64,000 nucleotides of DNA from a virus (Duplodnaviria; Caudoviricetes), in the IMG/VR virus record IMGVR_UViG_2910903598_000004, positions 1-64,000 of that record, one strand, 5' to 3'. Below, piece after piece: positions 18,628-59,429 of the stretch. Within the stretch, counting starts at the first letter, position 1. Every line of letters starts with the position of its first letter. The position numbers were made by a program, and so were the translations under genes. Below the pieces are notes generated by a model. It saw only the letters and a program-made list of their open reading frames with translations. It was not told the origin of the DNA and searched no databases.

Positions 18628-18716
18628 AAAATAAAAAGGCATAAAAAAGCAGACAATTATATATTCTGCTTAATTCATGCCTCAAAATGCTCTACGCATT
18701 ATAGGTTAAAATTCTA
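18628..18716 (-). terminator. Leader repeat, terminator-only half copy
   Basis: GGCAT..GCAGA/TCTGC..ATGCC + T tract, no 5' module. Confidence 0.7.
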
Positions 18717-18717
18717 T

Positions 18718-18957
18718 TTATTTTCGCACGATGATAATATTGCGGTCTTTATGTAAATTCTGCGGACACAGTGGAAAGCTACATTTTTTATAACTCACCG
18801 TATTTTCAACATGTGTTTGTCCATTTGAAAGATTATTTACATAAACGTACATTTTATTGTGATCTTTGTGCGTCCACATAACTCCTGCACAAAAAGACAA
18901 TATAAATGTAACTCCGCAGATAAGTGCAAGTTTCATAAAATAATTAGTTTTTCCCAT
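18718..18957 (-). CDS. Small protein with N-terminal TM/signal
   Basis: Hydrophobic N-terminus; RBS follows leader copy 3. Confidence 0.55.
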   Translation of the reverse strand: MGKTNYFMKLALICGVTFILSFCAGVMWTHKDHNKMYVYVNNLSNGQTHVENTVSYKKCSFPLCPQNLHKDRNIIIVRK

Positions 18958-18981
18958 CTTTCTTTCTCCCTTCATTTTGAA

Positions 18982-19140
18982 AAAAATAAAAAGGCACAAA
19001 AAAATACAGACTTACCGCCTGTTTTAATTTGTGCCAATATTGGTTAATATTCTATTTTATTAATACATCTATAAAAAAAGTCCTACTACACCCATGGTGC
19101 TTAGGAATCTAATAAAAACTACAAATATATTATAGCATAA
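18982..19140 (-). promoter_or_regulatory. Leader repeat, full copy 3
   Basis: TGCTATAAT -10 plus both modules. Confidence 0.85.
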
Positions 19141-19173
19141 GGATCTATTATTGTGAATACTTTTTATCTGCTT

Positions 19174-20460
19174 TTAGAATAAATCACATCCTTGTTTTTT
19201 AAATGCATTTACCTGTTGATTCCAGTTTTCAGAGGTCCAATGATATTGCTCCATTAAGCACTTTTTACAATAAAATTTATTTACATTTCTTCCATGCAAT
19301 TTTAAATTCATGCTTAATACATCTCTTTGCTTTATCCTTGTTTTTCCACACCTGCAGCATGTCTTGTTAAAATACTGTACAGCTACTTCTTTATGAATTC
19401 CTGTGTACATTGCAAATTCATCAATTACCTGTTCTGTAGGTACATTTCTAAATGTACCGCCGTTCCAAGCTTGTGTAAGATATTCATCTAATGTACAATT
19501 CATAACAAGCCATTTCTTATTCTCAATAAAATCTTTTTTTAGAATTTCTCTCCATCGCTGATATCCATTTGGATACCAGTATTTATCCAGAATCCATGTG
19601 GATTTAGAATAGTAAGGACACGCACAATGGCATCCTACTCTGGAATAACCTTTTTTATATTTAGGATTTACGGGAATCTTTTTCCAGACTGTATATAACC
19701 ATACATCCAGTTCTGTCCATTTTCTAATAGGAAGAATCCCTTTCCAACATGTATCATTTCCCCATTCTGCTTTATTAACCCAAACATCTTCATATGCTTT
19801 ACGTGTTAATGATTCGTCATTTCTCATACCCATCCATAGCAGATATGGATGATTATGATTGAGTTTCGATACCATAACACCAGTTTTAAATATTCGGCAG
19901 CAAAAACGAGATCTTCTGTTTGGTATCATATGATGAGATTCCACATATTCATAGAATCCTTTTCTTGGATTCATGATTTCACAGTTAGAAAATCTTTTCG
20001 CCATACGATATGTATCCTTACAATCAAGAGTCGTATTGTTAAATACTGCTTTAGTATCTGGATACAGACTTCTAACCAGATAACATGTCAACATCGAATC
20101 TTTTCCCATTGATACGGGAATGATTGATGTATATTCTTGATATTCCTTCATTTTTTCTTTGATAAGAATTATTGCTTCTGACTCAATTTGTTTCAAATGC
20201 TCTTTCTTCATTTCAATTAAATCCTGCCAGCTTGCCAAATCCACATCTTCTACATTGTCATAATCTTTCAGTTTTCTCAGCTCAGCGGTTGACAAATCAT
20301 TAGAAATAACGACTCTGTAAAATTTATGGATATTCCCATACTTATCGAATCCCTTAATAATCTGTTTATCAAGCCAAAAATAACCTTCTTTTATGTCTGC
20401 TAATTCTTTCCCTGTTACGTCTCTTAAAAATTTAATATATTCTTTGTATATAAGATTCAT
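19174..20460 (-). CDS. PAPS reductase-family (PP-loop) protein with Cys-rich C-terminus
   Basis: SMGKDS, RFCCRIFK, GMRNDES, PIRKW, GYSRVGCHCACP. Confidence 0.85.
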   Translation of the reverse strand: MNLIYKEYIKFLRDVTGKELADIKEGYFWLDKQIIKGFDKYGNIHKFYRVVISNDLSTAELRKLKDYDNVEDVDLASWQDLIEMKKEHLKQIESEAIILIKEKMKEYQEYTSIIPVSMGKDSMLTCYLVRSLYPDTKAVFNNTTLDCKDTYRMAKRFSNCEIMNPRKGFYEYVESHHMIPNRRSRFCCRIFKTGVMVSKLNHNHPYLLWMGMRNDESLTRKAYEDVWVNKAEWGNDTCWKGILPIRKWTELDVWLYTVWKKIPVNPKYKKGYSRVGCHCACPYYSKSTWILDKYWYPNGYQRWREILKKDFIENKKWLVMNCTLDEYLTQAWNGGTFRNVPTEQVIDEFAMYTGIHKEVAVQYFNKTCCRCGKTRIKQRDVLSMNLKLHGRNVNKFYCKKCLMEQYHWTSENWNQQVNAFKKQGCDLF

Positions 20461-20624
20461 ACCAGCCACTAACCGAATCCGGTGAATGGCAACATATGGA
20501 TTGCTATTATGCGAATGAATTATAGTCTAATTCAAACTTATAGCCACGATCTTCAATTTTCCGGGCGAATATCTCTTTTCTCCATCGCCCAACCTAGTTT
20601 CACTAGGATAAGGTATTACTCCTT
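20461..20624 (-). ncRNA. Putative multi-stem cis-regulatory RNA between SD and start codon
   Basis: GC-richer helices cctagt/actagg, gggcga/tcgccc, ccgg/ccgg, gcaat/gttgc, bracketed by atacc/ggtat. Confidence 0.5.
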
Positions 20625-20756
20625 TCTCTGTTTGATTTAATAAAATTGTTTCTATAATATTTAATCATAATAATTTTTAAGTGCATGATATGTGTGATCA
20701 TACCATGCACTCTTCTCCTTATGTCCATTAAACTTAACTAATGATGAAATATCGAC

Positions 20757-57481: not shown

Positions 57482-57564
57482 TCTTCTTTCCTCCTAATTT
57501 CAAAAGAACTATCACACTATTGCCATGCTTTTGATGACATCGGCACCGTATGATAGTTCAATTC

Positions 57565-57747
57565 TCATTTTTTTATTTCACAGGCAATATCACTTCTACT
57601 TCCACGAACAGAAAAACCTTCTGTATCATGTTTCAGAAGAATAGCCATAATCTGTTTTTCTTCTTCCTCGCTCAAAGAGAATCCTTCCCAATAAGAAAAA
57701 TCATCTTCTCCGAATCTGGTAATGATTCCAAAAATGTTCTCACTCAT
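57565..57747 (-). CDS. Small hypothetical protein
   Basis: RBS within the upstream gene. Confidence 0.55.
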   Translation of the reverse strand: MSENIFGIITRFGEDDFSYWEGFSLSEEEEKQIMAILLKHDTEGFSVRGSRSDIACEIKK

Positions 57748-58462
57748 TTTCTTTCCTCCTGATTTTAATCTTAAAACCATCATGACAAAAACCATATTTG
57801 TTTGTCAGAGCGTCTGAAACATCATCCAGAAAATCCTCATTATAATCTAAATCATCGTCAGGATCATATTTAGAAAAATTAATGTTAAGAACTGAAGCAT
57901 AAATTTCATCAGGTAATCCTGCCATCACTCTAACATCATCCGGTGTAGACCAATTGATGTTTGTGATCATGATATCTTTCCATGATCTTTGCTTCTTTTT
58001 TTTCTTTACCCATTTTAATTCCATAAGATCGAATTGGTACAATTCACTAGGTCGTTCTGTTTCCTCATCTATATCGAGAAAATCAATGCACAGTAGGCAA
58101 TCTGCAAAATTACCTTGTCGTTTTGGCACATCAAATACAAAATCGATGCCATACAATTGATCAACATATCCTGATTCATGGATCAAATCTTCTGCTTTTT
58201 TTAAAAAATATGAAAAATTCGAATCTGTGACTTTCTTAAATGGCTTTATTGGCAAATTATCATTTTTATATTTTGTATCTTCTTTTAAAGTATAATCAAA
58301 ATATTTATTACCATTTTCATGGTAAACCGGTAATTTGTTAAGATGATATTTGATTACAAGATGTCTTGCGAGACTCAGAATATCATTATTCATCGCAGCT
58401 CCATCTTGAATAATCAGCTTTGTCTCATTTTCTGTAATTTCTAATTTCCAATTTTTAATCAT
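57740..58462 (-). CDS. Hypothetical protein, paralog of the 49337..50185 N-terminus
   Basis: IKNWK.EIT..KL.I..GA.M..D.L.LAR. Confidence 0.7.
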   Translation of the reverse strand: MIKNWKLEITENETKLIIQDGAAMNNDILSLARHLVIKYHLNKLPVYHENGNKYFDYTLKEDTKYKNDNLPIKPFKKVTDSNFSYFLKKAEDLIHESGYVDQLYGIDFVFDVPKRQGNFADCLLCIDFLDIDEETERPSELYQFDLMELKWVKKKKKQRSWKDIMITNINWSTPDDVRVMAGLPDEIYASVLNINFSKYDPDDDLDYNEDFLDDVSDALTNKYGFCHDGFKIKIRRKENE

Positions 58463-58475
58463 AATTTCTTTCTCC

Positions 58476-58805
58476 TTATATGCAAATCATATGAATAATA
58501 TCACTTTCTGGTATAGGCATTTCACGTTCATGGTGATCTAAATCTCTTTGACCAAATTCATCAATGAAATCATCCTCAACCGCTGATCTCTTTGGTTTGT
58601 GATCATACTCGAAGATATAATCATCATCAATAAGATCATCATTATCGTTGACTCTTTGAACTTTTGCGTAGAATGTAGGGAATTCTTCATTTTCTTCTGC
58701 TTTTCCAATTACATACTTTACTTTTTCCGCTTTCCATTCCGTCTTCCATTCATCAAGCTTGATGCACTTATACCCATCAATTTTAATTTGCTTTTCATTT
58801 TTCAT
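58476..58805 (-). CDS. Hypothetical protein
   Basis: RBS + ORF. Confidence 0.6.
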   Translation of the reverse strand: MKNEKQIKIDGYKCIKLDEWKTEWKAEKVKYVIGKAEENEEFPTFYAKVQRVNDNDDLIDDDYIFEYDHKPKRSAVEDDFIDEFGQRDLDHHEREMPIPESDIIHMICI

Positions 58806-58819
58806 AATGTATTCCTTCC

Positions 58820-59299
58820 TTACCAATAATTTTGTCGTTTGACAATATCCTTGCAAATCATGCTTGCCAGAAAATCGTCATTTTCACATAACTCTTTCAA
58901 ATTTTCTCTTATATCATCATAAGATTTTGAAAATTCTTCGTAAGCATAGTCAATTATTTCTAATCGCTTTTCTAATGATTTGATAAACCTTTTTGTGCTT
59001 TCGATTTCTTCTGATACTTTTTGCTTAATTTCTTCCAAAGTATTTGGATTATCCTTATTACCACAATCAATATAATTTCTAAAATATTGATTTTTGGTAA
59101 ATTTTGTATCAACTTCAAGAATGTATCCTCGAAAAGATTCTTTCCTTTTATATGTTGCATTGGTGAAATTTTTTGACATGCTTTTAAAAGGGGTTCCATC
59201 TTTTTTCGTTAAATATGTGACATTTTCCCATGCTTCCAGTCTTGCTTTATTTTCTTCAATATAATCTTTCAAATCTCTTTTAATACTATTCAAACTCAT
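58820..59299 (-). CDS. Hypothetical protein
   Basis: RBS + ORF. Confidence 0.65.
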   Translation of the reverse strand: MSLNSIKRDLKDYIEENKARLEAWENVTYLTKKDGTPFKSMSKNFTNATYKRKESFRGYILEVDTKFTKNQYFRNYIDCGNKDNPNTLEEIKQKVSEEIESTKRFIKSLEKRLEIIDYAYEEFSKSYDDIRENLKELCENDDFLASMICKDIVKRQNYW

Positions 59300-59429
59300 A
59301 TTTATTGCCTGCCTTTCCTATGATTTTTTAATTTCAGTACGATAAAATTCTTTGATATATAAAAAGTACAAAAACAAATAATAATTTTTCATCTGTTTTT
59401 GTACCATATTAATATAATATATATCAAAA

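Follow-up and report, generated by a model that had tools for sequence, protein, structure and literature searches.

Promoter-less terminator-like hairpins within the gene arrays of a plasmid-like element

Leaders and hairpins of the element

The stretch of DNA analysed here (the window) comprises the first 64 kb of IMG/VR record IMGVR_UViG_2910903598_000004, a single record of 119,963 bp with a G+C content of 32% and with all its sizeable open reading frames (ORFs) on the minus strand. IMG/VR classes the record as virus/provirus; its scanned genes are instead like those of a plasmid or an integrative and conjugative element. The gene arrays contain a family of leaders, each with a promoter and two hairpin modules, and many other terminator-like hairpins. 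They also contain six hairpins that an earlier note on this DNA described as the second leader module without the promoter and the first module ("half copies"), and from which it proposed processive antitermination.

Fifteen full leader copies of ~130 nt each were found in the contig, spread across 90 kb and all on the minus strand; 12 are inside the window. The order of parts is an extended -10 promoter (TATGnTATAAT), a conserved start region (TGTATTTTTATYAGAYT), module 1, an A-rich linker, module 2 and a second U-tract, with a Shine-Dalgarno sequence (SD) ~10–20 nt further on. The copy c22954 (22799–22958, minus strand) is an example, with the extended -10, a module 1 hairpin followed by U7, the A-rich linker, module 2, the U-tract and the SD. 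For the other 11 copies in the window, the TATG of the -10 is at 253, 8804, 19139, 23960, 25537, 30339, 34881, 41643, 44892, 53903 and 60093 (minus strand).

Module 1 is a hairpin of variable sequence with 9–11 bp, followed by C-U7; by its sequence it is terminator-like rather than put- or nut-like. In module 2, an inner CAGAY/RTCTG stem is enclosed by an outer GGYAY/RTRCC clamp, the first U-tract is paired to the A-tract, and the full copies have stems of 16–23 pairs. The two-helix fold paired 94.7% of cells, versus 40–60% when the partners were slid. Changes on both sides were found at 6 of 15 pairs, and the covariation score was reached by none of 500 shuffles. Across the 15 copies, the module 2 sequence is kept beyond the needs of pairing, a conserved internal loop included, and the hairpin loops differ in sequence and length.

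A regular-expression census of the modules in relatives was too noisy and was replaced by two covariance models: R1, for module 2, built from the 15 full copies, and R2, for promoter plus module 1. R2 matched the 15 full copies only, and no copy consisting of module 1 alone was found in the contig. The fuller sister records G001 (209 kb) and G002 (222 kb), which are collinear with the contig in blocks at 91–99%, gave 15 strong leader matches each. In IMG/VR the leader was found in seven contigs only, all of the same lineage, and the exact leader pattern gave one match in the GTDB species genomes, which we took as chance. By these searches, the family occurs only in this lineage. A search of the 64 kb with Rfam 15 revealed no family at gathering score, only noise around one leader and half copy. 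A diverged unit of the full type is present on the plus strand of G001 (76,850–77,070), with TATGTTATAAT, a module 1-like hairpin, module 2 at 54 bits, an SD and an ATG. It is on the opposite strand, at the end of the region that bears leaders in the relatives; the first ~76 kb of G001 has a higher G+C content (35–38%) and no leaders.

Terminator-like hairpins are abundant in the element. Two counts of terminator-like sites gave 22 and 18, versus 6.4 and 7.1, respectively, in shuffles, and hairpins at -12 kcal/mol or better numbered 60 on the coding strand and 20 on the other strand. At the six places named in the earlier note, a stable stem-loop is directly followed by a U-tract on the transcribed strand, the structure of an intrinsic terminator, although the U-tract of one (half copy 4) is fully paired. 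About 26 coding-strand terminator-like hairpins lie inside arrays of co-oriented genes and are not followed by a recognisable promoter. Apart from the half copies, ~20 compact terminator-like hairpins lie between co-oriented genes, several of them directly before a ribosome-binding site (RBS). The earlier note had cited unrelated T-tract hairpins in this position, and its example proved real: the hairpin at 50210–50249 (minus strand) has 18 pairs and U8 and stands directly before an RBS (-21.5 kcal/mol, z -6.3). Another, at 49276–49306 (minus strand), ends 22 nt before the next gene (-20.7 kcal/mol, z -7.9); further examples are at 37998–38019, 26182–26207 and, outside the window, 71790–71836. 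The last of these is a very strong 20-bp hairpin (-29.9 kcal/mol) 30 nt before the start of a gene encoding a 1607-aa methylase-helicase, with no recognisable promoter between them.

Hairpins also mark the ends of the operons. The terminator at 25550–25589 (minus strand) has an 18–19 bp stem just upstream of a full-copy promoter (-28.2 kcal/mol). Others are at 11255–11292 (before the non-family promoter at 11209), 23015–23051, 30355–30394, 34897–34935, 41660–41695, 44916–44945 and 60132–60162 (minus strand). Median hairpin energy was -18.4 kcal/mol for the operon-end terminators versus -12.0 kcal/mol for the other internal hairpins (p 0.006). A difference in stem length between the two groups was considered and rejected (p 0.36); folding energy alone differs.

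Promoters outside the leader family (11209; 80623/80539) also precede unrelated terminator-like hairpins. In the region 11096–11292 (minus strand), the gene for an S1-domain protein has its own extended -10 promoter (TGATATAAT) at 11209, behind a strong terminator. Two unrelated tandem terminator-like hairpins follow this promoter, which is the design of the family leader with a different sequence. At the topoisomerase gene (80,444–80,480 of the genome), a G+C-rich hairpin with U7 comes after an SD and an ATG and before a second ATG; this hairpin would either lie in the first codons or separate the SD from the real start.

The six promoter-less hairpins

Hairpins were present on the coding (minus) strand at all six places named in the earlier note: 18636–18683, 22597–22617, 33450–33483, 35946–35969, 53375–53395 and 59365–59405. 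The promoter and the 5′ module are indeed missing there, as R2 was silent and no TGnTAWAAT was found nearby; no promoter or module 1 lies within 220 nt upstream of any of them. The claim that the hairpins usually stand just before an RBS held: five of the six are 2–40 nt from the next SD or start codon, and the hairpin at 59395 is 65 nt from it. The claim that they lie between co-oriented genes failed for the hairpin at 22616, which only a 3-codon ORF separates from module 2 of its own leader. As for the claim that all six belong to one CAGAY/RTCTG module, R1 recognised one firmly and one marginally, and the other four did not bear it out.

The CAGAY/RTCTG arrangement itself was found 26 times, versus 5.7 ± 2.5 in shuffles. 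Because the operon-end terminators at 41660–41695 and 60132–60162 carry it too, this motif is a general habit of the hairpins of the element. Median hairpin energy was -11.3 kcal/mol for the half copies, -21.7 kcal/mol for module 2 and about -8 kcal/mol for module 1. The majority of the half copies fold weakly (-8 to -12 kcal/mol), and several have stems of only 7–9 bp.

The clearest case is half copy 1 (18625–18685, minus strand), which consists of the linker and module 2, followed by the SD GGAGGG and a 60-aa ORF. R1 scored it at 46.3 bits (E 7e-6), and its fold had -20.9 kcal/mol (z -5.4). A TTGAGG-18-TATAAT arrangement inside this hairpin was set aside as evidence of a start site of its own, because a scan with the sigma-70 consensus gave no more promoter-like matches than in shuffles. 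The second site recognised by R1 was half copy 5 (53360–53403, minus strand; 28.4 bits, E 0.016). It has a CAGAC hairpin with U8 and no outer stem (-10.2 kcal/mol, z -2.5) and is followed by an RBS and a gene for an HD-domain protein (52402–53349, minus strand). Distant homologues of this protein have an OB fold and are named in the source as 3′-5′ exoribonuclease (YhaM-like). At the loci of these distant homologues (27–40% identical), there was no match to R1 or R2 and usually no hairpin before the RBS. A seventh site, outside the window (73820–73880), scored marginally at 32 bits.

Half copy 2 (22573–22630, minus strand) has a CAGAC hairpin with U7, a GCAU/AUGC outer stem and a linker-like stretch (R1 19.8 bits, E 0.66; -16.3 kcal/mol, z -6.6). 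It forms the third hairpin of an extended c22954 leader, ~190 nt past module 2 and ahead of a DUF3268 gene. The sequence between that module 2 and the hairpin (22630–22790, minus strand) contains an SD, a 3-codon ORF (MKQ*) and ~130 nt of G+C-richer non-coding sequence. This segment folds moderately well (-34.7 kcal/mol, z -2.3), has no Rfam match, and could represent a small RNA or what remains of a gene.

Half copy 3 (33441–33483, minus strand) is a 13-bp hairpin (-18.2 kcal/mol) followed by an RBS and a RadC-like gene; the 5′ outer arm is absent, and R1 gave no match at E <= 1. Half copy 4 (35931–35993, minus strand) is a 17-bp A/U-rich hairpin (-21.8 kcal/mol) 12 nt past the stop codon of a gene for a 583-aa LPD1 protein. 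R1 matched it on the plus strand only (19.6 bits). Its U-tract is fully paired, with no free U tail past the full long stem, and downstream is a 26-codon remnant of a gene that runs on in G001. Half copy 6 (59353–59408, minus strand) is a 17-bp GGUAC..GUAC hairpin with U5 (R1 21.8 bits, E 0.28; -17.5 kcal/mol).

The R1 scores at 59353–59408, 22573–22630 and 35931–35993 are like those of the unrelated terminators 34880–34937 and 26174–26206. From these comparisons, the hairpin at 18625–18685 is certainly a promoter-less copy of module 2, one or two further sites probably are such copies, and the remaining sites are classified as generic hairpins, built of A-tract, CAGAY stem and U-tract. Five of the seven sites, the one outside the window included, are the first hairpin 190–720 nt past a full leader, behind 0–2 small ORFs or a gene remnant.

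Sister elements and gene content

Comparison with G001 and G002 revealed exchange of DNA next to these hairpins. At leader c19139, the contig alone has a 335-bp segment that comprises ORF93 (18718–18999, minus strand; no Pfam family), a linker and a second module 2, which is half copy 1; the ORF lies between this hairpin and module 2 of the leader. In both sister elements the segment is absent, and the RBS of the 60-aa ORF comes straight after module 2 of the leader. ORF80 (53501–53743, minus strand), which separates module 2 of leader c53903 from half copy 5, is likewise absent from G001 and G002, where an orphan SD and the hairpin are kept. Between leader c74739 and the hairpin at 73867, G001 has a full-length gene of the PD-(D/E)XK transposase family (PF12784, E 5e-15) with its own extended -10 promoter. 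This gene is shortened and diverged in the contig (73,900–74,530 of the genome), with its own TGCTATAAT promoter, and is mostly deleted in G002.

Two more of the sites differ in G002. A different hairpin and a different gene stand there straight after the stop codon upstream of half copy 4. About 30 nt past half copy 6, G002 carries a 1.6-kb insertion (148484–150092, opposite 59331/59332 of the window), which has hairpins near both ends and looks like an IS200/IS605-type element. At leader c88375 (outside the window), the full copy of the clamp-loader operon, module 2 is accompanied by the promoter and module 1 in the contig and by neither in G001. The G001 counterpart follows the stop codon of another gene, and the homology starts exactly at the hairpin. 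Other strong copies without the promoter are present in G001 at ~92.3 kb and 79.6 kb, and after each come a U-tract, an SD and a start codon; the promoter-less copies of G001 scored 47, 41 and 63 bits. As far as these alignments go, the inherited unit was shown to be hairpin, U-tract, SD and gene, with the DNA just upstream of the hairpin being exchanged.

Rearrangement breakpoints were near 5 of 7 half copies versus 8 of 42 other hairpin features (Fisher p 0.01). The region 24.6–28.4 kb is also rearranged in G001 and G002, and a 300-bp direct repeat with 98% identity (24588–24887 and 29099–29398) lies within two paralogous 244-aa genes.

The genes scanned encode an Alp7A-type actin, two SSBs, ERF, YqaJ, RecD2-like and UvrD helicases, a topoisomerase, a sliding clamp and a clamp loader. 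Other genes encode the 1607-aa methylase-helicase, RadC, PARG, polyvalent-protein domains, SecA/SecY, a sortase, a TnpB-like protein and a PRTRC-type ThiF/E2/JAB set. No capsid or terminase hallmark family was found among the scanned genes of the contig. Megablast of 24 kb matched no plasmid; phages gave two short matches only. Two genes are leads only. One encodes the S1-domain protein (10103–11008, minus strand; PF00575, E 5.5e-9), a possible RNA-binding factor, which the protein atlas labels only "S1 domain protein". The other encodes a Phage_ProQ_C_like domain protein (55291–55728, minus strand; PF24203, 31 bits), in which the FinO/ProQ N-terminal domain was not found.

Explanations and known systems

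The explanations were ordered with leaky cassette pieces first, followed by antitermination, RNA processing, a hairpin-specific factor and site-specific recombination. The first draws on the PeSL cassettes of T4-type phages, in which a strong promoter is combined with an effective stem-loop terminator and an SD and which are shuffled as modules between relatives (PMC2839356). We give roughly even weight to the view that the promoter-less hairpins are leaky terminators or attenuators, mostly leftover or generic pieces of a PeSL-like regulatory cassette. Recombination would run through the repeated leader pieces, possibly via the ERF, YqaJ and SSB proteins of the element, and each inserted cassette would leave a hairpin behind, as the PeSL cassettes do in T4-type phages. 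Proteins of the ERF, YqaJ and SSB types are able to recombine short homologies. The partial terminators or attenuators would step transcription down from the leader-proximal small ORFs to the following genes, and read-through would be ordinary leakage. Antisense transcripts would be halted too, because the A-tract makes the hairpins two-way. From the sequence data, a dedicated antitermination device is not required. The weak internal hairpins would fit leaky termination; they would equally fit the pLS20-type pattern of sensitive internal and resistant terminal sites (PMC10325885).

Several points weigh against leaky cassette pieces. The internal hairpins ending at 50249, 49306 and 71836 (the last outside the window) look strong, and several such hairpins in series would leave little transcript unless helped. 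Breakpoints were at hairpins in 12 of 54 cases, versus 38.6% expected for random intergenic positions. Because this is no enrichment, the link with hairpins may only reflect that cassettes end between genes. Moreover, the left junctions of the swapped segments are without homology. On both grounds, recombination through repeats is something that we infer rather than see. The relatives are very close, so that conservation of the hairpins says little about selection, and the gene calls used throughout are crude ORF calls.

The earlier note inferred that polymerase is modified by the 5′ module or that a factor recognises this hairpin family. In the form considered here, the leader RNA (either module 1 alone or the entire leader) would act in cis on polymerase that has started at a full copy and make it resistant to termination. 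Neither module 2 nor the half copies nor the unrelated internal terminators would then halt this polymerase, which would stop only at the strong operon-end terminators. Part of this inference stood: ~26 internal hairpins have no promoter after them, the operon-end terminators are stronger than the internal ones, and every half copy is downstream of a full copy with no operon-end terminator between. Cis-acting RNA antiterminators do exist in Gram-positive mobile elements (PMC8191782, PMC11658703), and long-stem terminators resist them (PMC10325885). However, module 1 is itself a hairpin with U7, and module 2, with 16–23 pairs, belongs to the long-stem class that resisted conAn (PMC10325885). 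Stem length is alike in operon-end and internal hairpins. The promoters outside the family have equally terminator-rich leaders, so that a read-through factor would not be tied to module 1. Instead of one element of 260–600 nt at the start of an operon, there are 15 copies of ~130 nt, with no Rfam family match. The NGN/NusG domain (PF02357) was absent from the contig and four fuller relatives, and the controls matched. ConAn1 (pXO2-34 domain, PF17362) gave no match in the contig and four relatives, with control genomes also silent at E <= 0.1, so that its absence is only weakly indicated. The sigma70 r2 and r4_2 domains were not found in the contig. The weak half copies could simply leak, and the cassette exchange seen in the relatives explains half copies without antitermination. 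With module 1 terminator-like, no known factor found and cassette exchange sufficient, we regard cis-acting antitermination as unlikely, though it stands first among the alternatives.

Two explanations assign the hairpins a function in the RNA. A hairpin 5′ of the SD could be a site of RNA cleavage or protection that uncouples the mRNA fate of each cistron from that of its neighbours; RNase III sites of T7 and 5′ stabilisers of Firmicutes are comparable elements. Such a role would explain why the hairpin travels with the downstream RBS. It agrees with the short distance between hairpin and SD, which is constant in full and half copies, with the co-inheritance of hairpin and downstream gene, with stems of ~20 bp that have internal loops, and with the homologue of a YhaM-like exoribonuclease next to one hairpin. 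Nevertheless, the perfect U6–U8 tracts past the stems would be needless for processing sites, and several half copies have stems of only 7–9 bp, which makes this role improbable. An RNA-binding protein encoded by the element could alternatively recognise module 2 through the GGYAY/RTRCC clamp, the U.U internal loop and the CAGAY stem and open or stabilise every copy, as one element-wide switch. The conservation of module 2 sequence and internal loop beyond pairing in 15 copies would suit such a factor. So would the presence of these features in the true half copies, those of G001 included, and the genes for the S1-domain and ProQ_C-like proteins. That conservation could equally result from recent common descent and gene conversion, however; the loops vary, four of the six half copies are without the features, and nothing ties either protein to the hairpins. 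We consider a hairpin-specific factor slightly less probable still than a processing role.

The cassettes present or absent beside hairpins and the common orientation of all genes would also agree with site-specific recombination at hairpins like integron attC sites, where a dedicated recombinase would insert cassettes that have no promoter. This is highly improbable: no integrase or resolvase family was found among the scanned ORFs of >=55 aa in the 120-kb contig, the hairpin travels with the downstream rather than the upstream gene, the U-tracts would be left unexplained, and the hairpin sequences are heterogeneous.

If the hairpins are leaky cassette pieces, the element would provide a Firmicute plasmid-like counterpart of the T4-type PeSL cassettes, in which a repeated module sets transcription levels and marks the gain and loss of small genes. 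This would help to explain the uptake of accessory genes by large gut elements. Under antitermination, if true, a control known until now only as a single device in each operon would have an unusual form with many copies. We also considered a genome-wide switch, in which ~17 promoters have built-in terminators and every unit of hairpin, SD and gene, whether or not it has a promoter of its own, is opened by one element-encoded factor or by a multi-copy cis-acting leader RNA. This is doubtful, somewhat more so than antitermination in cis; if true, a 200-kb plasmid-like gut element would have antitermination control of a new, distributed form. With leaky pieces and with antitermination alike, the sister elements offer the same hairpin with and without the promoter as clean, small test objects.

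Among known antitermination systems, HK022 put and lambda nut share with the leaders a stem-loop RNA element just past the promoter, followed by terminators. The two specific stem-loops that make up put have no U-tract, and nut depends on boxA, boxB and the N protein. The present element yielded neither such features nor such proteins, and in both modules the loops are variable. The known antitermination systems nearest to the element are conAn of pLS20 and canT of Tn916. Conjugative elements with conAn (PMC8191782), TerR (PMC10325885) and canT (PMC11658703) have processive antitermination built with internal and stronger end terminators. As in the present element, conAn and canT go with long co-oriented arrays, many internal intrinsic terminators and stronger ones at the ends of units. 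However, they have one antiterminator per operon (conAn2 of 260–600 nt plus ConAn1, or a single canT RNA). The present element has 15 promoters, each with a short leader, no ConAn1 domain and a terminator-like 5′ module, and it thus lacks their defining features.

Ordinary two-way intrinsic terminators resemble the hairpins in the short GC-containing stem, the loop of 3–8 nt or somewhat longer, the A-tract before and the U6–U8 after. Unlike ordinary terminators, many of the hairpins are 10–20 nt before an SD inside gene arrays, and a subset has received from the leader family an additional outer clamp and an additional U-tract. The PeSL cassettes have the same repeated combination of a strong sigma-70-type promoter, a stem-loop terminator or attenuator and an SD between small genes (PMC2839356, PMC4122927). 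They also show insertions, deletions and replacements between close relatives at the cassettes; here there are clear cases at five half copies and several leaders, but no enrichment over random intergenic positions. The setting differs, a T4-type phage there and a plasmid-like Firmicute element here, with no sequence relation. In the present element the hairpins are downstream of the promoter, in a ~130-nt leader with two hairpins, and promoter-less pieces occur too. The likeness to PeSL is thus best regarded as an analogy of function, not as membership.

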